A stretch of DNA of 64,000 bases from a virus. Location of the stretch: IMG/VR virus record IMGVR_UViG_3300038393_000351, positions 53,392-117,391 of that record; one strand, given 5' to 3'. Positions 1 to 53,922 of the stretch are shown in pieces. Every line of letters starts with the position of its first letter. The stretch's first letter is position 1. Position numbers and translations under genes: made by a program. The notes under the pieces are model-generated. The model saw nothing but the letters and a program-made list of their open reading frames with translations. It was not told the origin of the DNA and did no database searches.

Positions 1-176
1 TCCTTCATACGACGAGAGAAGTCGAGCACTCCCTTTGAGTCCGGACCGCGGTCGATGTAGTCGCCGATGAAGACGTAGCGAGTCTCCTCACCCGGAAAGT
101 TCTTTTCATAGGCTGCTATGAGCGCCTTGAGTTGATCAAGGCACCCATGAACGTCGCCGATTGCAAGTGTTTTCAT
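1..176 (-). CDS. PPP-family Ser/Thr protein phosphatase / metallophosphoesterase (5' part only, runs off window)
   Basis: Manual translation from ATG at 176: MKTLAIGDVHGCLDQL...FIGDYIDRGPDSKGV, with the GDxHG and GDxxDRG motifs. Confidence 0.9.
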   Translation of the reverse strand, partial: MKTLAIGDVHGCLDQLKALIAAYEKNFPGEETRYVFIGDYIDRGPDSKGVLDFSRRMK

Positions 177-177
177 T

Positions 178-333
178 TTACTCACTCAAGATCGCCACGA
201 TGTCCTTGGAGATCGAATCGAATACTGCGTTAGCTTCTTCCTGCGACAGATTCTTGTCGTCGATTAAGCCGTGCTTTGCAAGAGCTGTTACAACGCTAAC
301 AACGATTAAAACTGCGATCACTTCGGTGTTCAT
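178..333 (-). CDS. small protein with N-terminal hydrophobic helix
   Basis: MNTEVIAVLIVVSVVTALAKHG...; ATG at 333 overlaps the upstream stop; 3' part of ORF 178..543. Confidence 0.55.
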   Translation of the reverse strand: MNTEVIAVLIVVSVVTALAKHGLIDDKNLSQEEANAVFDSISKDIVAILSE

Positions 334-1334
334 GATGCTAATTCCTTGTTTCCTTGATAAAGACGAACTCGACCTTCCGCTTCTGCTTTGATGAAGCGGG
401 CTACGTAGTCGTCGTTGTACATAGCCAGAACTTGGTAGTAGTGTTCCCAGGCATACTCCCTCCACCATCCGGAGGTGATCGAAGTGCATACCTTCTCCAG
501 AGCGATCAGGAACGAAGTCCTCGGTGCGATCTCGAAGTTGCACGGAATCTGGCTGCGCTCCAGAGCGAGAACGTAGGACTCTTCGAGAACTGAGAGGAGC
601 TTGACGTGAATCGGAAGTTCAAAGAACTTCTTCTTATCGGTTTTAACTTCTGCGCCGTCGGCTTGAAAATACTTGTACGCCGGAGAAGTTTTTTGCATAT
701 CTTCGTCCATGCAAAACGGCCAATCCGGATCTGGAAGCGTGGCTAAAGCCGCGTGTATGTCGTCGTGCTCATACTTGTACTCGACTCCATCACCTGAGAA
801 GAACTGCTCCTTGTTCCGTTCAAGAGACGGGTGCTTATAATAGTACGTTGCCTTCTCACGTCTCTTGAACCAGTCCTGAAGCACTGGGGGTACGCTGTAA
901 CCAAGTCCCCTCAGAGCCAGGATGTCGTCCATCGTCTTCCTGAAGTGTGGATTGTTCTTCAGATAGCGGTGAGACAACTTCAGTGCTAGAACAACGTTCG
1001 GATCAGCAAAGTGAACGACGCCGAACAGATCATCTAGAAACTTTTTGTTAAACTCTGTAAATAGCGCTCGGTCTGTTCTTTTCAGTTCCCATCCAGTTGG
1101 ATTCTCGATCGGATCGGCAACCTCAAACTCGATCGGCCTGGCACCTCTCACGTGAAGATGAATGATGATCTTTAGCAACCGAGAATCATCGGTGTGAAAC
1201 TCGATTTTCTTTTCCCTAAGGCGATCTTGAAAACCATTGATTTCATCCATCGTAGCGATGGCGTCTACATCCGAGGGAATCCTCCCCAGGCGAACGCCGT
1301 GAGCGATGAGTGCATGAGAACCGATGATGAGCAT
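330..1334 (-). CDS. putative nucleotidyltransferase-fold protein (conserved phage protein)
   Basis: N-terminal IIGSHAL...R.PSDVDAI matches the pol-beta hG[GS]..DxD signature; start reassigned to ATG 1334 just after the upstream TGA. Confidence 0.6.
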   Translation of the reverse strand: MLIIGSHALIAHGVRLGRIPSDVDAIATMDEINGFQDRLREKKIEFHTDDSRLLKIIIHLHVRGARPIEFEVADPIENPTGWELKRTDRALFTEFNKKFLDDLFGVVHFADPNVVLALKLSHRYLKNNPHFRKTMDDILALRGLGYSVPPVLQDWFKRREKATYYYKHPSLERNKEQFFSGDGVEYKYEHDDIHAALATLPDPDWPFCMDEDMQKTSPAYKYFQADGAEVKTDKKKFFELPIHVKLLSVLEESYVLALERSQIPCNFEIAPRTSFLIALEKVCTSITSGWWREYAWEHYYQVLAMYNDDYVARFIKAEAEGRVRLYQGNKELAS

Positions 1335-1335
1335 G

Positions 1336-1629
1336 TCAGCAACCCGCATCCGATGATAGCCAACCTTCTAAGGCACCATGCCCTTCGAGAGGCCAATAGT
1401 CGTTCCGTACATCAGAACTATACCATGGTGTTCCATCCGATTGAACCGGAAAATAATACCCAGAGTTTCCAAATTCATCAAAGGGAGGAAGTCCAGTAAA
1501 CGAAACGATGATGCCGTGTTCATCGGCGATCTTTTCGATCTCCCAGATCTTCCTCTTAACGTAGTCGCGAAGCTCAACTCGGATTCCCTCGATCTTCGCC
1601 TGAGCTTCAGCTTTCGGATCATTAGTCAT
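1336..1629 (-). CDS. WxSS..C paralogue family member 5
   Basis: KIADEHG...GYYFP...WLSSDAGC; motifs shared with four upstream paralogues. Confidence 0.8.
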   Translation of the reverse strand: MTNDPKAEAQAKIEGIRVELRDYVKRKIWEIEKIADEHGIIVSFTGLPPFDEFGNSGYYFPVQSDGTPWYSSDVRNDYWPLEGHGALEGWLSSDAGC

Positions 1630-1810
1630 CTTGATACTTCTCCAGGATCAAGGTGAATTTCTCACCATTGATTTCGAAATTGCGATAGCTAACGTGTTCA
1701 CCGTGTTTTGAAGCTTGAAAGAATCGCCTATCTTCATATCGATCCATGACGTCTTCTATCCCATTATCGATAGAAGACGTTAGTTCATCTAGAATACTCA
1801 CGCTCAACAC
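1622..1810 (-). CDS. hypothetical protein
   Basis: 62-aa ORF filling the gap between paralogues with overlapping start/stop. Confidence 0.55.
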   Translation of the reverse strand: MLSVSILDELTSSIDNGIEDVMDRYEDRRFFQASKHGEHVSYRNFEINGEKFTLILEKYQDD

Positions 1811-2133
1811 CTTTCGGACGAACTGATCCAGTTACCGTGACTCCAGTCACGTTCGTATTCTCCGCAGTTGTTCCATGGATGATATTCATGGTGTTCCGGA
1901 TGATTTTTGTTTGGATCTTCTTCGTAACCTTCCGGAAGATCATATGCATAATCATCCCAGACTACCCAATCATCTGGACGCTTCGGGTAATAAGTTCCAG
2001 AATGCTGGTTGTCTGGGCTGGAGTAGACAAAAGGCACTATATGATCGTCGGCGATCTTTTGTGCTTCTTTCCATTTTTCTTTGATCGAATCGATGATATC
2101 ATCGATTCGATTGCGCGCTTGTTGTTGATTCAT
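1804..2133 (-). CDS. WxSS..C paralogue family member 4
   Basis: MNQQQARNRI...KIADDH...GTYYP...WISSSERC; ATG at 2133. Confidence 0.8.
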   Translation of the reverse strand: MNQQQARNRIDDIIDSIKEKWKEAQKIADDHIVPFVYSSPDNQHSGTYYPKRPDDWVVWDDYAYDLPEGYEEDPNKNHPEHHEYHPWNNCGEYERDWSHGNWISSSERC

Positions 2134-2135
2134 CT

Positions 2136-2384
2136 TCAGCAATAGATCGAAGATGAAGACCAGGACGAAGGATACCACTCACCTTCACCTGAAGCACCAC
2201 CGTCTGCGTACGGATGATTTTCCGAACCGGCCGGGTAGTAAGTACCGATGTTGCGAGGCTCGAAATCGAACTCTTCACCAGTCTCATCGGCGATCCTCTG
2301 AGCCGCGTCGATCAGTTCCTGAATCTGACCACGAATCTCAGCGAACTTCTTTCGCGCGTATTCCTTCTTACTCATACCGTCCAT
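2136..2384 (-). CDS. WxSS..C paralogue family member 3
   Basis: RIADETG...GTYYP...WSSSSIYC; GGAGG RBS before ATG 2384. Confidence 0.8.
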   Translation of the reverse strand: MDGMSKKEYARKKFAEIRGQIQELIDAAQRIADETGEEFDFEPRNIGTYYPAGSENHPYADGGASGEGEWYPSSWSSSSIYC

Positions 2385-2395
2385 TTCTTCCTCCA

Positions 2396-2656
2396 TCAGC
2401 AAGTCGACGCTTGCCAGTCAATGTGTTCATGAGACCAATGAGCGTCTGCCCATTCATCTGACGCTTCCCATTCGCACCCGCCCGACGCTTGCCAGATCAG
2501 CTCACGAGGGTGATACGTGCCCAGCGTACTCGGCTTGAAATCAAACGAGATTTCATGCTCGTCGGCGATCTCAGTCGCCTTATCGAGAAGATCGTTGACT
2601 TCAGCCAGGATCTTCTTGATATCTTTCTTCGCTTTTTCCTTCTTACTCAGCGTCAT
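2396..2656 (-). CDS. WxSS..C paralogue family member 2
   Basis: EIADEHE...GTYHP...WQASTC; AGGAG RBS. Confidence 0.8.
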   Translation of the reverse strand: MTLSKKEKAKKDIKKILAEVNDLLDKATEIADEHEISFDFKPSTLGTYHPRELIWQASGGCEWEASDEWADAHWSHEHIDWQASTC

Positions 2657-2667
2657 TCAGTTCTCCT

Positions 2668-2925
2668 TTAACAGTTCTGCGACGATGAACGCCAGAAACC
2701 ACCATCGTCTCCATACTCATTCGATGGAAACAAGTAATCGTCGGGATCACCTTCCCACTCGCTTTTTCTTGCAGGATCGGGATAATACGATCCGCCCATG
2801 CCATACGCAACACTGAAGAAGAACTCGATACCGTGAGCATCGGCGATCTCAGTAGCTTCCTTGATGAGGAGCTTTGCTTGATTCTTCAGTTCCTGAATCT
2901 TTCCTCTCGCTTCGTTCTTATCCAT
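2668..2925 (-). CDS. WxSS..C paralogue family member 1
   Basis: EIADAHG...GSYYP...WRSSSQNC; GAGGA RBS before ATG 2925 (ORF track starts at 2940). Confidence 0.8.
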   Translation of the reverse strand: MDKNEARGKIQELKNQAKLLIKEATEIADAHGIEFFFSVAYGMGGSYYPDPARKSEWEGDPDDYLFPSNEYGDDGGFWRSSSQNC

Positions 2926-2954
2926 CCGTTCCTCTTCCATATAAAGACAGTGGG

Positions 2955-2984
2955 ATTATACGTCCTAAATACTCATTCGTGAAC
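2955..2984 (-). promoter_or_regulatory. sigma70-type early promoter of the paralogue operon
   Basis: gTTCACG-17 nt-TATAAT on the minus strand, similar to T4 early GTTTAC...TATAAT. Confidence 0.65.
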
Positions 2985-3076
2985 TTATCGTTGAAAGTCT
3001 TTTTGAACCGTAAAATAGTTAACACTCATCCCTGTACAATGCCGATGATAAGGTATATGTATGATCTAGAAGGAGA

Positions 3077-3343
3077 ATGATCATGAGTATCTGGTCAGAC
3101 ATGCTTAGAGGAGCTTTTTATGGACTCTTTGGGAGCGGTTCATACATAGACTCCGATCATCCGAACCTCGATCCAGTCAAGATCGAGATCATGGAACCCA
3201 ACACTCTTCAGTGGGCTCCGGTTGGAACATCGGTACCAAACATCAACGCCGTGAGCGTCAGGCTTCGAGAAGAAGTTAGAAAAGTTCCCGGCAGGCGAGC
3301 TCGGGCTGTTGATTCTTCCGGCCGAGTAATCGACATCGCGTAA
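3077..3343 (+). CDS. hypothetical protein
   Basis: 88-aa ORF with AAGGAG RBS. Confidence 0.7.
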   Translation: MIMSIWSDMLRGAFYGLFGSGSYIDSDHPNLDPVKIEIMEPNTLQWAPVGTSVPNINAVSVRLREEVRKVPGRRARAVDSSGRVIDIA

Positions 3344-3344
3344 A

Positions 3345-3400
3345 AATAAAAGTTTCTAGATCAACTGCACTGTGGTTATAATCTGGCCACAGTGCAGTTG
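3345..3400 (+). promoter_or_regulatory. early-type promoter embedded in a 14-bp inverted repeat
   Basis: AATAAAAGTTTC...GTGGTTATAAT; arms CAACTGCACTGTGG (3362-3375) and CCACAGTGCAGTTG (3387-3400) flank TATAAT. Confidence 0.6.
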
Positions 3401-3430
3401 CTGTATCTATAACAAGGAGAACACTATACG

Positions 3431-3628
3431 ATGACGACCAATAAGACTACCAAGCTTCTGAATGAGTTCTTGAAGGGCAAGGTCCTGACCGTTGCTCAGA
3501 TCCGTTCGAAGTTCGGCGTTCGCAATGTTTCGGCACACATCTCGTACATCCGCCAGAAGCACGATCGCCGCATCGTCACTTCCCGCAAGGGAAACAAGAC
3601 CTACTACGGGTTTCAAGCTGTAGCCTAA
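3431..3628 (+). CDS. small winged helix-turn-helix DNA-binding protein
   Basis: LTVAQIRSKFGVRNVSAHISYIRQK HTH pattern followed by beta-wing; AAGGAG RBS. Confidence 0.7.
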   Translation: MTTNKTTKLLNEFLKGKVLTVAQIRSKFGVRNVSAHISYIRQKHDRRIVTSRKGNKTYYGFQAVA

Positions 3629-3655
3629 TCACTTAAATATCAAGTGGTTCGTAGG

Positions 3656-3678
3656 GCCGGCGCATAGCCGGCCTTTTT
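3656..3678 (+). terminator. rho-independent terminator
   Basis: GGCCGGC-gcata-GCCGGCC followed by TTTTT. Confidence 0.75.
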
Positions 3679-3691
3679 CGTATGAGGAGGG

Positions 3692-3877
3692 ATGATGGCA
3701 AAGAAGAAAGAAAAACAATGGAAGCTTCATGCGATGACCAAAGAGGGTTGCGCTACTCTCTTCAAGTTCTATAAAGACAGATACAACGTCAGACTGATTA
3801 AAGATCGTGAACTGGATACCAACGGAGTCACGTGGACGTTTACGATCACACATCCGTTTCCAGATGAGGTGGACTGA
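3692..3877 (+). CDS. hypothetical protein
   Basis: 61-aa ORF, GAGGAGG RBS, TGA/ATG overlap with next gene. Confidence 0.65.
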   Translation: MMAKKKEKQWKLHAMTKEGCATLFKFYKDRYNVRLIKDRELDTNGVTWTFTITHPFPDEVD

Positions 3878-4308
3878 TGAAGATAGGATTCACTGGAAAC
3901 CAACACGGAATGAGCAAGGCTCAGAGAGTAGCGTTCGCTGAGACGATCATATCCTGGGATTCAAAGCAGTTCCCAACTGAGTTTCATCATGGAGACTGCA
4001 TAGGTTCGGATGAACAAGCACACTTCATCGTGAAAGAAGTGTGTCCTCACTGGAAGATCGTAATCCATCCTCCCATCAATCATACGAAGAGGGCGTTTGT
4101 TCTGGGCGATGAGTCTCGGATCTTACGGGATTATCTACCGAGAAATCGAGACATAGTCAGCGAAGCTCTGAGGATGATAGCTACACCGGCTCAGTATCTG
4201 GAGCAACTCAGATCTGGTACGTGGTACACTATTCGGTATTCGAGAAAAAGAGGCAGAATGATCCGAATCATCTTTCCGGATGGATCGTTTCGAGACGAAA
4301 ACGTATAA
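3877..4308 (+). CDS. SLOG/DprA-YspA-like Rossmann-fold protein
   Basis: IGFTG...HHGDCIGSD...RNRDIV...SGTWYTI motif set typical of the SLOG superfamily. Confidence 0.7.
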   Translation: MKIGFTGNQHGMSKAQRVAFAETIISWDSKQFPTEFHHGDCIGSDEQAHFIVKEVCPHWKIVIHPPINHTKRAFVLGDESRILRDYLPRNRDIVSEALRMIATPAQYLEQLRSGTWYTIRYSRKRGRMIRIIFPDGSFRDENV

Positions 4309-4336
4309 ACCCGGGAAATTTCCCGGGTTTTATTTT
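4305..4336. terminator. bidirectional terminator between convergent genes
   Basis: perfect palindrome AAACCCGGGAAATTTCCCGGGTTT with T/A tails. Confidence 0.75.
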
Positions 4337-4436
4337 AACTTCCTAATATGTAGGGAATGATGATTCGAAGAAGTCCGGTATTATTAGCAATCACCATCAG
4401 TCCAATGAAGATGAGTACAGCAGTTACCCAGCGCAT
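4335..4436 (-). CDS. small membrane peptide (33 aa)
   Basis: Manual translation MRWVTAVLIFIGLMVIANNTGLLRIIIPYILGS; start overlaps regA stop. Confidence 0.5.
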   Translation of the reverse strand: MRWVTAVLIFIGLMVIANNTGLLRIIIPYILGS

Positions 4437-4837
4437 CACTTCTTCTTTCCGATAGCGTACTTTGGAGACAGTGTCCATTCCTTCTTCTCGTCGAAGTGGA
4501 TTACTTTAATCTTCTCCCGAAGGGGTCCTTCAATCTTTTCCGAGATAGCGTTCTTAGGTGTCCTGATCTTGACCAGATCCCATTGCTCAAGTAGGTCCGC
4601 GATCGTGTTTCGACGTGCTCGATCCTCATCATCGAATCCAGCATCCATGCCATCGAGCAGCCTCATCTCCTTGTAGTGAGTGATGAAGTATCGACCGCGC
4701 TTCTGTAGGATGTGGCAGGACTGATAGAGCGTCTTATCTTTTGAAATACCAATTCGAGTGAGCGTTTCCTTGACTTTCAGGAACTGCGGGCGATCTAGCG
4801 GCTCAATCTCAATAAACGTATCAATCAACTTCTGCAT
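4436..4837 (-). CDS. regA: translational repressor RegA
   Basis: FLKVKETLTRIGI...LYQSCHIL.K.GRYFI.HYKE; located after gp62. Confidence 0.95.
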   Translation of the reverse strand: MQKLIDTFIEIEPLDRPQFLKVKETLTRIGISKDKTLYQSCHILQKRGRYFITHYKEMRLLDGMDAGFDDEDRARRNTIADLLEQWDLVKIRTPKNAISEKIEGPLREKIKVIHFDEKKEWTLSPKYAIGKKK

Positions 4838-9355: not shown

Positions 9356-10563
9356 AGCAAAATGTCCTCGAGTGTTCTAGGTGCTTCCTTTTCATACACG
9401 TGTTTCTGAGTATGATTATATTGAAACACTAGCGGTTTAGTGACCCACTGCCTGTTTCCATTCAGTGCTTCACGAACTTCCACAGCCATGTCGTGTGCCG
9501 TCTTAACGGGAACGTTCTGACAGATGTGATTAGCCGATTTCTTTGGATCGAGAAGCTCAAAGTTCTCGGGAAGTCCCATTATCGACATAGCTTCACGATA
9601 AGTGATGAAGCGATCGTGAATTGGGTGTGTCAGGCAAGTGGGATAATGACCGACAAACGCACCGATGTAGTCCTTGGGAACAACAGTTCCGCGGCGCATT
9701 AAGTTTCCGCCGGCGTCGAGCTTAGCCTGCCTCTTGGCACACTTGGCGACTTCTCTTTCGAGACCCTGCTTCGCCATCCACTCACCGACTTGAGTGTAAT
9801 TATAACCCTGAAGCTCGATATATGACAACGAATCGTTGCCGCGGGCTTTCAAGGGTTCAAGAACTTTCGTCGAGAACTCTCGATGTGAGATACCACCGTG
9901 AATCACTTCCAGAATAAATCGGTAGTATGGATCTGACTCAGAAGGTGTCCTGGGATTGATCGGATCCATCTGGGAGTTTGACTTAACGTTGATTATAAGA
10001 TCTTCAATCTTCTGATGCGGCTCGTTATAGTAGTTCAAGATCGGAGTCTTATCGCCTTTCCAGAAGAAGTAGAACGAACGCTCCCGGACTTGAGGGATGC
10101 CGTGCAGGAGTGATCGCGTACGATAGAAAGAAGCTGTGTATCCATACTTCTTTCCAATGCTGATTAAGTTAGCTCGTACGTTCTGTCCAATCTTTCCGGC
10201 TAGTCCTGGAGCGTTCTCACCGAAGTACGCAGCTGGTTTAATCGTTCCCAGAACATACTCAGCTGCTTTCGGCATCCAATCGTTTGCGGGATTGTTGTCA
10301 CCGTATCCATGGGATAACTGAGACAAGCCCGCACAAGGACACGTGCTGTGAACAACGTCTACTTTAGTGTGCGGAGAATCACCGTTGTCTATTACGTAGT
10401 ACGGAACGTCTTTACCAAGCGTGCTTTGGTAGTGATTGACGATGTGCTTATCGTTATTCCAAAACGCTTTGTACGAAATAAGATATTCTGGATCTTGATC
10501 AAAAGCCTTGGCTGTTCCAATATCCATTCCACCAATGAGTGGAATAATTCCCGCGAATTTCAA
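9352..10563 (-). CDS. C5-cytosine DNA methyltransferase-like protein (atypical motif I)
   Basis: catalytic PCAGLS (motif IV), ENAP (VI), PQVRER (VIII), RFITYREAMSIMGLP (IX), QNVP (X); motif I is IPLIGG. Confidence 0.85.
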   Translation of the reverse strand: MKFAGIIPLIGGMDIGTAKAFDQDPEYLISYKAFWNNDKHIVNHYQSTLGKDVPYYVIDNGDSPHTKVDVVHSTCPCAGLSQLSHGYGDNNPANDWMPKAAEYVLGTIKPAAYFGENAPGLAGKIGQNVRANLISIGKKYGYTASFYRTRSLLHGIPQVRERSFYFFWKGDKTPILNYYNEPHQKIEDLIINVKSNSQMDPINPRTPSESDPYYRFILEVIHGGISHREFSTKVLEPLKARGNDSLSYIELQGYNYTQVGEWMAKQGLEREVAKCAKRQAKLDAGGNLMRRGTVVPKDYIGAFVGHYPTCLTHPIHDRFITYREAMSIMGLPENFELLDPKKSANHICQNVPVKTAHDMAVEVREALNGNRQWVTKPLVFQYNHTQKHVYEKEAPRTLEDILL

Positions 10564-16035: not shown

Positions 16036-16110
16036 TGGCGCACCTAGACGGAATCGAACCGCCGACACAAGGGTTGAAAGCCTCCGTTCTACCATCTGAA
16101 CTATAGGTGC
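16036..16110 (-). tRNA. tRNA with atypical anticodon arm (TTC/Glu or TCA reading)
   Basis: GCACCTA/TAGGTGC acceptor, GTTC/GAAC D-stem, GGCGG-TTCGATT-CCGTC T-arm, encoded CCA; anticodon arm imperfect. Confidence 0.8.
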
Positions 16111-49900: not shown

Positions 49901-52900
49901 TGTTAACAACAGCTGCGAGCTTAGTACCATCCGAAGACGACGTGATCCACTGCCAAAAGCGTGAACCAGCACCGCTTTGTAGAGTCCAAGTAACACCTGA
50001 GTCAGTTGATGTGTAGATAAACGTATTGTTAACAACGGCGAGCTTAGTACCGTCATCAGATGAAGCAATGTAGTTCCAGCTTCCCGATCCGGTTCTCTGT
50101 ATCCAAGACGTAGCGCCGTCACCAAGAGCGACACCCTGTCCCCATCTTACTATAGCACTCTGTGCTGATGCCGATGATGTTCCTGAGGAACTACCATCTA
50201 TAGCATTGACTGATTGTGCATCACCAGATGCAGAGCTACTTCCAGATGAATTACCACTAAAAGATATAATGCCGTTATCTGGTGTAATTCCAATAAGCCA
50301 TGCTGCCCATGGATCGGAGCCAGTGTTACCGTTATCAGATTGAACCACATCATTTGTTGCACCAGTAGACGCAAATGGTATATCAGCTGCGTATACAAGA
50401 CCATCAAAGCGTTCAGTTAATTCAACTGGTGGAGAAAGATTTCCAGATCCTGTCCAATTATGAGAGATCCAAATGAGCATATCATTTGGTTGAGTAGTTG
50501 TAATTCCGAGTGCATCAGATGATACTCCTACACCAGTATTATGTGATGAAGCATCGATGAATAATCCTGATTTAGAAGCACCAGCATACGCTAATAAAAT
50601 CGCTTGTGATGAAGCACTTGAGTGCGTAAAAGTATAGCTACCGCTTTCGCTTGCGGCTCGTTTCGCGTATACATGCAATTGACCATTAAAATTACCACTG
50701 TCGGTTACGGATGTTGGAGAACCAGGAAGCTCTGTAAATCCAGCTGGAGCTATAACCGATGGCGCGGTCGTATCAGCACCAACGAATATTGCCGCGATGA
50801 TAACATCATCATCCACAAGGCCGCTGGGTGCTGATAACGTAGTATCAGTTCTTACAGCGTATGTCGTTGACGAAGACGAGCGAAATACGATAGTTTTGAT
50901 TGAGTCTCCAACAACAGCTGTAGAAGCTGTACCAGAAGCGCTGGCGCTCGATCCAGCAGCACCCGTGGCTGTTGATGTTCCAGATGATGACCCAGATGAT
51001 GAAATTACAACAGCACTAGTTGATTGAGCTGTGCTCGTGCCAGCAGACGTCGCAGCAGCCCCGTTTATACTTACGCCGTTTGCTACGGTGCTTCGTGCAC
51101 CAGTATAAACGTAATCGTAATAAGTAACGGCTACTATTTTAGTACCATCAGAAGATAGTGCTGTTTTAACCCACCGATTATATCCTGCGGCTGCTTGAGG
51201 AGTCCACGTAGCACCTGAGTCATTAGACATATAGATGTAGTCATATTGACTTGTGTTAACAGTGGCGACTATCTTAGTACCATCAGCGGATATCGCAATT
51301 GATTTCCACTGCTTTGAACCAACGTCTGTGTGTTGAGTCCACGTTACGCCGGAATCTGTAGACGTGGAAATATAAGCCGCTCCTACTAAGCTAGCGATTG
51401 CCAGCTTAGTACCATCAGCCGATGACGCTACAGCGAACCAATATCCAGTTCCAGATCCAGTCTGCCGTGTCCAGGTTACACCAGAGTCACTCGACGTGTA
51501 GATGTAATCACCGTTATCATTGCCGGCGATTAGTTTGGTACCATCAGCTGACGATGCGATCGATCGCCATTGTTTTACGGGAGCATTAGTCTGCTGTGTC
51601 CACGTAACACCCGAGTCAGTAGATGTATAGATGTTTCCATTATAAACAACAGCCGCTAGCTTAGTACCATCAGCGGATGACGCAATCGCTTGCCAACTTC
51701 TTGAACCCGATCCCGTTTGCTGAGTCCAGGTAACACCGGAATCCGTAGACGTATAAACGTAATCGGTGTTGCTGTTAACGATAGCTAATTTGGTGCCATC
51801 ATCGGACGATGCTAGACTTGTCCAAGTAGCGTAAGGTAAGATGCTAGTGCGGAGCGTCCACGTTACACCTGAGTCGGTTGATGTATAGATATAACCAACG
51901 TCTGATGCGATTAGTTTAGTACCATCAGCAGATGAGGCAACTTGATATAAATATTTTACACCAAGACTCGTCTGTTTCGTCCATGATATGTCACCACCGC
52001 CGCCTGCAACACCAGTTGATGATATCGTTTGAAGACCTGCACCAGCACTGGATGCTGCACCGATACCAGATGCTGAAGCTGTAGAAGATGCTGTAGAAGC
52101 ACCGGTAGCAGAAGCAGCACCTACACCTAAAGCACTTGCTTTAACACCTGAAGCGCCGACGCCCGATACTGTGCTTGTGCCAGATGAAGATCCTGCACCA
52201 GTCTGATAGTTAGCTAAAGCACGAACGGTGTACTCATTGTATTTTAAAGTACCGTTATCATTGAGGACATATGGAATGACCATATTAGAACCACTCTGAT
52301 AGATCAGTCCATCTACGGATAAATCACTCTGAGCAGTTTGGGATGCAGAAGAAGTGTAAATCGTTCCGACTAATGTGAACGTGGAGCAGTTATCAACGGA
52401 TTTATAAAGAACCCAGTTATGAGAAGTTTGTAACTGAATTATCCAATAAACAGTACTTCCATCAGCAAATAATCTGTATGGATATGCTTCTGGAGCAGTA
52501 ATAGAAATATTACTGCTAATAACGAAACTTGGGGATACTCCAGTTGGAAATTCAACTACTTTTGGAAAACTCGAAGGATTTCCAGTAAGAGGAATAGCGA
52601 CTCGAGTAGAACCAGTAGTGCCAACAAAACCGATAGCGCGCGTCCGGGAGAGGTTAGCTTGAAGCACACCTCCTGTTGTTGTCAGTGCAGACCCTAGAAC
52701 GTTAGAACTGTTTAAATCACGTTCTAAAAGTTCACTACTGTTACTACCAACATATAGAAAATGTACACTACTAGATGATCCTACGGCACAGTTTGGATTC
52801 GTATAATCTATTGTGCCTCCACCATCAACACCTGTGACTCCTGACCACGTGTTAAGCCCGGTGCGTACTACGTATCCGACACGGGAATAACTTTTTCCCA

Positions 52901-53367: not shown

Positions 53368-53922
53368 TTACATCACCACCGACGTACCGCGTTCGATGAA
53401 GCTATCATTAGGCAGCAGCGCTTTCCACTCTTCACGTGTTTTCCAATTGAGATTAAGATATCCCGATCCGGTCGATACCCAATGATACACGCGCGGCGCT
53501 ATAAGATGCATAGCTGAACTAAGATTTACGCATTCTTGATCTGATAAGCATGGAAAAACGTCTTCTGAGATGACTATATCTCCAGTTCCAATTAAATTCC
53601 GTCCGTCTGATGTTAAGCAGTCTGCGTTTAGAACATCAATAAGAGAGTTACTCGCTTTATTTTGGTGAATCCACGTAGAAGTATCAACAGCTAGAACGGT
53701 GTAGCCGCTGTTGATCCAATCTTCTGCAACCCATCCAAAAGCCGCACCAATGATTATGATCTTCTGATCTTTACTGGGATTGATTGCTTTAAGTAGAGCC
53801 CAGTGATCGTTGCCAAAATATTCTTGTTTACCAGCTTTTTCAAAGTGATACGTGACTCCATCGATCACGCAGCTATAGAGCGAATCCCACGTTTCTTTTT
53901 GGTCAAAATCAAGCAGAGGCAT
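53368..53922 (-). CDS. SAM-dependent methyltransferase-like protein
   Basis: IIIIGAAFGW..E...VLAVDTS...NAD...DIVISEDVF class I MTase pattern. Confidence 0.65.
   Translation of the reverse strand: MPLLDFDQKETWDSLYSCVIDGVTYHFEKAGKQEYFGNDHWALLKAINPSKDQKIIIIGAAFGWVAEDWINSGYTVLAVDTSTWIHQNKASNSLIDVLNADCLTSDGRNLIGTGDIVISEDVFPCLSDQECVNLSSAMHLIAPRVYHWVSTGSGYLNLNWKTREEWKALLPNDSFIERGTSVVM

Follow-up and report, generated by a model that had tools for sequence, protein, structure and literature searches.

The first 2,984 nucleotides of a 64,000-nucleotide stretch of viral DNA (positions 53,392 to 117,391 of IMG/VR record IMGVR_UViG_3300038393_000351; hereafter the window) encode on the minus strand five small proteins that end in cysteine, a 339-residue enzyme of predicted nucleotidyltransferase fold and the start of a phosphatase. 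The window is the final 64 kb of a 117,391-base record that is estimated to be 67% complete. Comparison across phages shows, as far as gene order and sequence can, that the Cys-tailed genes and the enzyme gene form a functional pair, because their linkage runs both ways, keeps to one strand and extends over distant phages. This pairing has not yet been described, and it is kept across very different phages. We favor, with a probability of roughly 0.4, a reading in which it is a phage enzyme-plus-client module, where an array of Cys-tailed genes precedes a single MenT/AbiEii-like nucleotidyltransferase and the small proteins would be modified.

Linkage across phages

A scan of IMG/VR with an alignment of the enzyme gave 197 confirmed relatives, from which 80 loci were kept, and these were searched with a hidden Markov model (HMM) of the small family at E<=1e-3. 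At least one small-family open reading frame (ORF) occurs in 64/80 enzyme loci, with one to six per locus, and every hit (127/127) is on the enzyme's strand. The small ORFs lie upstream within 3 kb in 59/80 loci, many of them only 4-100 bases away. Two of the 16 loci without an HMM hit have fewer than 330 bases upstream before the contig edge, and in 7 of the 14 others divergent ORFs with the ending W-x-[SP]-S...Cys or W-D-S-S-x-Cys lie immediately upstream. The tail pattern is found in 182/1226 near-upstream ORFs versus 7/3946 distant ones. When the enzymes are clustered at 55% identity, the HMM scores a hit in 23/27 informative clusters, a count that rises to 26/27 when hits of the tail pattern are included.

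The reverse search began from the small protein's YGMGGxY motif alone, which samples one subtype, and yielded 17 loci, with 9/17 contigs shared with the first set. The enzyme lies within about 1 kb in 16/17 of them, and the 17th contig stops 97 bases past its second small ORF. A first-pass annotation of this DNA had anticipated that the small proteins and the enzyme would travel together. They co-occur far beyond chance from both sides, and homologues of the small proteins do not mostly occur apart from the enzyme. Across 81 loci, the enzyme and the small family are the only families that recur around the enzyme; the remaining recurrent "family" is an antisense artefact within the enzyme gene, and the phosphatase comes next, at 15/81 loci. 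Enzyme loci lacking small genes do exist (L010, L046, L062 and L065), while we found no informative small-gene locus without the enzyme, an asymmetry that fits clients in need of their enzyme.

The module is phage-restricted and widespread, being present in RB69-like, Aeromonas, Acinetobacter, Pseudomonas and jumbo phages. The same gene order is seen in the named phages Mosigvirus p000v and Otagovirus phiPsa374, and T4 has no enzyme. More than 2152 proteins are related to the enzyme at E<=1e-10, 701 GenBank phage records match it, and the small family comprises 1027 clusters at 50% identity (E<=1e-3). Among 185,579 prokaryotic species genomes there are only four enzyme loci, all on metagenome-assembled contigs, with a small gene upstream in two.

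Some loci hold arrays that the HMM does not detect. Five tandem ORFs at 9-10 kb of L028 end in F-W-[IV]-P-S-S-M-[ES]-C, and L016 and L026 hold arrays of three ORFs whose tails include WASSRC and WFPSEIGC. As these divergent arrays escape the HMM, the family is wider than the HMM counts suggest. Separately, a group of related phages (L046, L062, L063 and L065) has the enzyme and no HMM-detectable Cys-tailed gene within 10 kb. They share an upstream ORF of 177-178 residues ending in KQH, a possible alternative partner that directly precedes the enzyme in L046, L062 and L065.

The Cys-tailed proteins and the enzyme

With their likely starts and ribosome-binding sites, the five window paralogues have 82-109 residues and a net charge of -7 to -12. 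Their five-way alignment has 29-38% identity, with A11, I32, A33, D34, G50, Y52, P54, G77, W83 and C90 invariant, and their relationship as paralogues goes beyond chance. All five match PHROG 899, a family without assigned function, at E 2e-20 to 0.022, covering only about positions 138-221 of the 221-position profile, and no Pfam family reaches its cut-off. An independent HMM, for which 127 cluster representatives were taken from other sources, all of them below 60% identity to any window paralogue, matches exactly these five among the 855 window ORFs. Their E-values run from 6e-28 to 2e-10, and there is no sixth match even at E 10. The five tandem acidic paralogues of the first-pass annotation are therefore borne out, as are the tails and the (K/E/R)IAD and G-x-Y-(Y/H/F)-P motifs that it had described.

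The gene for paralogue 1, of the YGMGG type, lies at 2668..2940 on the minus strand (tail WRSSSQNC; phrog_899 E 2e-20, independent HMM E 6e-28) and could start at ATG 2940, giving 90 residues, or at ATG 2925 behind GGAAGAGGA, giving 85. Paralogue 2 (2396..2656, minus; 86 residues) has the tail WQASTC and matches phrog_899 at E 3e-10 and the independent HMM at E 1.4e-14. The open frame of paralogue 3 (2136..2402, minus; tail WSSSSIYC; E 1e-11 and 9e-15, respectively) runs from TTG 2402, and ATG 2384 or 2375 behind GGAGGAAG are the likelier starts. Paralogue 4 (1804..2133, minus; tail WISSSERC; E 3e-9 and 5e-13) has the longest middle of the five, with 109 residues from its likely ATG at 2133 in a frame open to 2178. 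Paralogue 5 (1336..1629, minus; 97 residues; tail WLSSDAGC; E 0.022 and 2e-10) overlaps the enzyme frame, when this is read from ATG 1349, by its final 14 bases. The array is split between paralogues 4 and 5 by a putative 62-residue ORF (1622..1810, minus) that is not a family member: it has no Pfam or PHROG match and is not matched by the small-family HMM. In the 94%-identical locus L005 only 136 bases (9543-9678) separate the matching stop-to-stop ORFs, and the 62-residue ORF may thus be a recent insertion or not a gene at all.

The tail is the hallmark of the family. Across 176 members, with a median length of 85 residues and a median net charge of -8, the C-terminal residue is Cys in 173, and W83, S86 and C90 are invariant in an alignment of 121 sequences. 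A member has one to three units of the form W-x-x-S-[S/D]-x-G, and many have two or three in tandem, of which the final one ends in Cys; the tail is the last unit of a series of W-x-x-S heptad repeats. At least two W-x(1,2)-SS units occur in 61/176 members compared to 0.1 expected from shuffled sequences, and the commonest W-to-W spacing is 7. Paralogue 2 even carries an internal copy of its own tail, WQASGGC followed by WQASTC. The repetition of a short Ser motif gives these proteins the appearance of a substrate for multi-site modification.

Between helix and tail, the middle segments share 54-94% identity with their orthologues in other contigs and only 18-38% among paralogues, and between orthologues they are often better kept than the N-terminal helix. 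They had been described at first as hypervariable, which holds from one paralogue to the next but fails among orthologues. This pattern speaks for five old, distinct subtypes under purifying selection rather than a hypervariable cassette. A fold model of paralogue 1 (predicted local distance difference test, pLDDT, 85.2) has a helix and a three-stranded sheet. The helix spans residues 8-36 (about 29 residues), and the N-terminal helix of the small protein is predicted to end in IAD-E-H-G; a hairpin (40-43 and 49-53) bears the G-x-Y loop, the middle, acidic and particular to each paralogue, is of lower confidence, and the C-terminus forms a strand (82-85) followed by a short helix (86-89), with pLDDT of about 75. 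No solved structure resembled this model, the best match having Z 3.5 in a wide structural search and E 2.4 in Foldseek against the PDB. The ESM Atlas gave no usable match for the small protein, and its relatives in BFVD, which include RB69 ORF139c and Aeromonas phage 31 ORF064c, are all uncharacterized. No longer or fused form of the family scored among 8000 candidates, which is weak evidence for the absence of such forms.

The enzyme gene lies at 330..1349 on the minus strand, with an alternative start at 1334. Its product has two domains, DUF7277 (PF23940, residues 6-77, E 1.6e-61) and the helical, conserved C-terminal DUF7275 (PF23942, residues 120-313, E 1.7e-10), and matches phrog_2141 at E 4e-97. 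An AlphaFold2 model based on an alignment of 39 homologues (pLDDT 89.1; predicted template modeling score, pTM, 0.85) predicts a DNA polymerase beta (Pol-beta) nucleotidyltransferase fold closest to the MenT1 and MenT3 toxins. Foldseek against the PDB ranked MenT1 first (E 1e-4) with TglT/MenT3 after it. In an independent structural search MenT1 was matched at Z 10.4 (root-mean-square deviation 4.2 over 161 aligned residues), TglT/MenT3 at 9.8, MenT4 at 8.9, JHP933 at 8.8, ANT(2'') at 8.3 and LnuA at 7.8; the top matches are nucleotidyltransferases throughout, and the structural alignments cover residues 1-304. The leads for the enzyme in the ESM Atlas were AbiEii, DUF6036 and ANT(2'') clusters only. 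The fold that the first-pass annotation had assigned is thus found in the model, and its GS...DxD signature is also real, with G10 in 39/39 homologues, S11 in 38/39 and D27 and D29 in 39/39. A third carboxylate is provided by E74 (36/39, with Asp in the remaining 3) or E76 (39/39), and K124, S126, H127, D142, H195, D196, H199 and C288 are invariant as well (39/39), the K124-x-S-H-R motif and many residues of the C-terminal domain being invariant or nearly so. By this conservation the catalytic motifs are intact. We also considered an HD domain at H127, H195-D196 and H199 and rejected it, as Pfam gave no HD hit at E<=1.

At the sequence level, the enzyme is not a DUF1814/AbiEii member. PF08843 had no hit to it at E<=1 in a Pfam scan and matched nothing in the entire virus record, though it did give signal in three control genomes, and the 39-homologue profile found only two chance hits (E 0.85) among PDB sequences. 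The MenT enzymes have a conserved phosphoacceptor just before the DxD motif, S78 in MenT3 and T39 in MenT1 (PMC11375011, PMC10435456), and a motif IV lysine in their helical C-terminal part, K189 in MenT3 and K137 in MenT1. Position 26, just before D27, is Ser in 11/39 homologues and otherwise Lys, Leu, Arg, Gly or Ala, with Pro at position 25 in 35/39; a Ser/Thr phosphoacceptor is not conserved at this presumed counterpart, which was matched through published residue numbers. The spacing of K124 and D142 resembles that of K137 and D152 in MenT1, a comparison of spacing only.

Readings of the module

We propose a model where the enzyme would recognize the conserved helix and tail of each small protein and, at the expense of a nucleoside triphosphate (NTP), would nucleotidylylate or phosphorylate the Ser that is invariant in the W-x-x-S units. 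Once modified, the paralogues may act as early effectors, each addressed to a separate target by its own conserved middle. The interaction, the modification of Ser with its chemistry and the effector role are inferred. Clients or substrates are favored by an invariant terminal residue with an invariant Ser in each repeat, by several paralogues per enzyme and by the lack of small genes without the enzyme, while a few enzymes stand alone. Chemistry of this kind is known in the enzyme's relatives, as MenT-type nucleotidyltransferases are described as auto-phosphorylating, moving phosphate from an NTP onto a protein Ser or Thr (PMC11375011). Several points weigh against this client model. The known relatives act on tRNA 3' ends and not on proteins (PMC10435456). 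The invariant terminal Cys is unexplained by modification of Ser, and the last W-x-x-S unit is modelled inside a folded strand and helix, so that the conservation of its Trp and Ser is possibly structural. In the enzyme lineages without small genes nearby, the enzyme has to serve a different substrate or function. Lastly, many of the 80 loci come from related phages and their counts are not independent, which counting by cluster remedies only in part. A complex prediction for the enzyme with paralogue 1 scored 0.00 in both runs, made without controls, and is neither for nor against binding. One could extend the client model to a phage protein-tagging system, in which a MenT-like enzyme would put a nucleotide or phosphate on the heptad Ser, the terminal Cys would serve in recognition or a second chemical step, and poly-anionic, possibly nucleic-acid-mimicking effectors would result, each paralogue disabling a different host factor or defense; in this full form we think it rather unlikely.

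It is possible, if somewhat unlikely, that the small proteins are instead regulators or adaptors in the manner of MenAT1. The enzyme would then act on RNA, for example on tRNA 3' ends, and the small proteins would bind it through their N-terminal helix and restrain, time or retarget it; different paralogues might confer different specificities, or also neutralize MenT/AbiEii-type toxins of the host. This accords with the top structural matches of the enzyme, MenT1, MenT3 and MenT4, and with the enzyme-only lineages, where the enzyme functions without small proteins. MenT1 is inhibited by MenA1, the 68-residue product of an upstream gene; the 32-residue helix at the center of MenA1 is enough for inhibition, and its C-terminus is dispensable (PMC10435456). 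The phage proteins are likewise small and encoded upstream, and are modelled to start with a helix of about 29 residues, but the C-terminal tail is their most conserved part. AbiE is an abundant anti-phage system (PMC11375011), and phage antitoxin mimics would therefore have a purpose. However, one to six small genes per enzyme are unlike a toxin-antitoxin pair, as is the near absence of the module from cellular genomes (4 loci in 185,579), and MenA1 is missing from the matches of the small-protein model in both structural searches. The lack of a conserved Ser/Thr at the presumed MenT phosphoacceptor position also argues against a MenT-like regulator system.

The first-pass annotation had read the locus as akin to pathways for ribosomally synthesized and post-translationally modified peptides (RiPPs), with leader/core precursors, a writer transferring nucleoside monophosphate (NMP), a phosphoprotein phosphatase (PPP) as eraser, and released or diversified peptides as products. 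The resemblance lies in the conserved N-terminal part, variable middle and conserved Ser/Cys tail beside a nucleotidyltransferase, and in the phosphatase gene that directly follows the enzyme in the window lineage, with a NinI-like Ser/Thr phosphatase family as its best PHROG match (phrog_246, E 1.6e-44). We now consider this improbable. A phosphatase homologue adjoins the enzyme downstream in only 2/80 loci (L005 and L070) and lies within 10 kb in 13/80, and its proposed part as eraser falls away with these counts. The leader/core logic fares no better: the precursor is predicted to be folded, the middles are conserved in orthologues, and across 81 loci there is no recurrent family of proteases, exporters or known maturases. 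Pfam, NCBIfam and PHROG scans of the neighboring genes returned nothing but Metallophos, RlaP, spanin-like and replication proteins. In some RiPPs the aminovinyl-cysteine (AviCys) ring uses a Ser that precedes a C-terminal Cys by three residues, a point in favor of the reading. Here the Ser-to-Cys spacing is variable (WQASTC, W-D-S-S-S-C), which does not suit a ring of constant size. Weaker still than the RiPP pathway with its eraser is pure synteny, in which the small proteins would be free-standing acidic early proteins, such as mimics of nucleic acids or inhibitors of another kind, with the enzyme as a mere neighbor in a hyperplastic region. The acidity of the family would suit such a role, and the array does sit in an accessory stretch between T4-like replication genes, with those for the translation repressor and two clamp-loader subunits on one side and the DNA polymerase gene on the other. 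Against it, adjacency holds in 26/27 informative clusters, whose enzymes are less than 55% identical, linkage is kept in genomes with otherwise different neighbors, and all the small ORFs share the enzyme's strand.

Beyond the choice between these readings, we are drawn to the module for what it would mean. It is carried by long-studied phages, RB69 and Aeromonas phage 31, and it is a sharply testable case, thanks to the invariance of the C-terminal residue, the repetition of the Ser motif and the dedicated nucleotidyltransferase next door. If the enzyme modifies the small proteins, this would be a new protein modification system in phage biology, and in the protein-tagging version a new class of enzyme-activated phage effectors. 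If the small proteins control a tRNA-modifying enzyme, phages would be using MenT-type chemistry themselves. Literature searches of main texts found no published description of the module, and supplementary gene lists may differ. In the database records that we examined, the small proteins are always named "hypothetical" or "uncharacterized", and so is the enzyme, except for one "putative nucleotidyltransferase" and one "HNS-dependent protein".

Neighboring genes and known systems

The phosphatase gene crosses the window start, with the first 61 of its 241 codons at 1..185 on the minus strand. With 64.6 bits, the full calcineurin-like/PPP protein lies above the Pfam Metallophos cut-off of 21.5, and the window fragment matches this family too; the full protein stays far under the cut-offs of the NCBIfam equivalogs for Pnkp, PrpE, ApaH and PrpA/B-like proteins. 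It is followed, just outside the window start and with overlapping stop and start, by a gene for a 327-residue RlaP-family nucleotidyltransferase (L004:6484-7467, G000:C1 about 51875-52858, minus; PF10127 41.3 bits; phrog_388 E 2e-82). RlaP is described as an RNA-ligase-associated nucleotidyltransferase of RNA repair (PMC7824862). An RNA-repair reading of phosphatase and RlaP was considered and set aside, as the 117-kb record, itself an estimated 67% complete, yielded no RNA ligase: PF09414 gave no match and PF09511 a single sub-threshold one (E 0.0026, two stops). RlaP occurs in 2/80 enzyme loci, and the phosphatase, the enzyme or small genes lie within 6 kb in only one of 24 viral RlaP loci, that of a near-identical relative. 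Given the missing ligase and the unshared RlaP neighborhoods, we treat phosphatase, RlaP and enzyme as independent neighbors; phosphatase and RlaP are lineage-specific and not parts of the module. Their removal from the model spares wasted experiments. PADLOC defense models found nothing in the enzyme, two small proteins, the phosphatase or RlaP.

Upstream of the array, the divergent intergenic gap before the first small gene holds a sigma-70-like site, TTCACG-17-TATAAT (2955..2983, minus), with 10/12 matches. It had been labelled an early promoter, and the site is indeed there, but four such sites in 1-4500 versus 4.8 +/- 2.2 in shuffled sequences are no excess, and the label rests on position only. 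Three small unmatched ORFs (3077-3343, 3431-3628 and 3692-3877) run away from the array from this divergent region, together with a gene for a 143-residue protein (3877-4308, plus) whose sole PHROG match is weak (phrog_289, "GTP-binding domain", E 5e-5). Right after the latter, at 4307-4330 on both strands, comes a GC-rich palindrome, AAACCCGGGAAATTTCCCGGGTTT, perfect over 10 bp and flanked on each side by T runs; it resembles a bidirectional terminator, being also ahead of minus-strand genes that end near 4335-4436. A tRNA-Glu with anticodon TTC (16036-16110, minus) is the sole tRNA detected in the window. Outside the window, among early and replication genes, two overlapping ORFs of 129 and 100 residues (L004:5147-5835, minus) look like a spanin pair, as the second matches Pfam LysC (Rz1-like, E 4e-7). 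A megablast of 1-3100 against GenBank phages gave no match, and a search of sequencing runs returned one DNA dataset with 0.93 of the words and listed no RNA dataset.

Set beside what is already catalogued, the window proteins are plain members of DUF7277/DUF7275 with PHROG 2141 and of PHROG 899, entries that give no function and no record of the pairing or the tail motif. RiPP precursor arrays are similar in that an enzyme gene stands beside a tandem series of small paralogues, in which some segments are conserved and others vary. They differ in that the proteins here are predicted to be folded, at 82-109 residues, with a variable segment conserved among orthologues and no known maturase, protease or exporter found nearby. 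MntA-HepT, a type VII toxin-antitoxin system, and GlnD/PII are cases of NTase-fold enzymes that nucleotidylylate a partner protein on Tyr. By analogy, they too place such an enzyme beside a small protein, and NMPylation is among the chemistries that we propose; there the acceptor is Tyr on one defined partner, whereas here several paralogues would each offer a repeated Ser motif as the candidate acceptor. The closest likeness is to MenAT1 and the wider MenAT/AbiE (DUF1814) systems, as the predicted Pol-beta fold of the phage enzyme is nearest to MenT1, MenT3 and MenT4, and in MenAT1 as well as here the enzyme gene is immediately preceded, in the same orientation, by one for a small helical protein. 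Unlike those enzymes, the phage enzyme has no PF08843 or PDB sequence match and has an extra conserved C-terminal domain, DUF7275. No likeness of the phage partner to MenA1 was detected, though short helical proteins match poorly. The module is also set apart by being phage-only, with one to six partner genes per enzyme, and by the invariant W-x-x-S...Cys tail of its small proteins.

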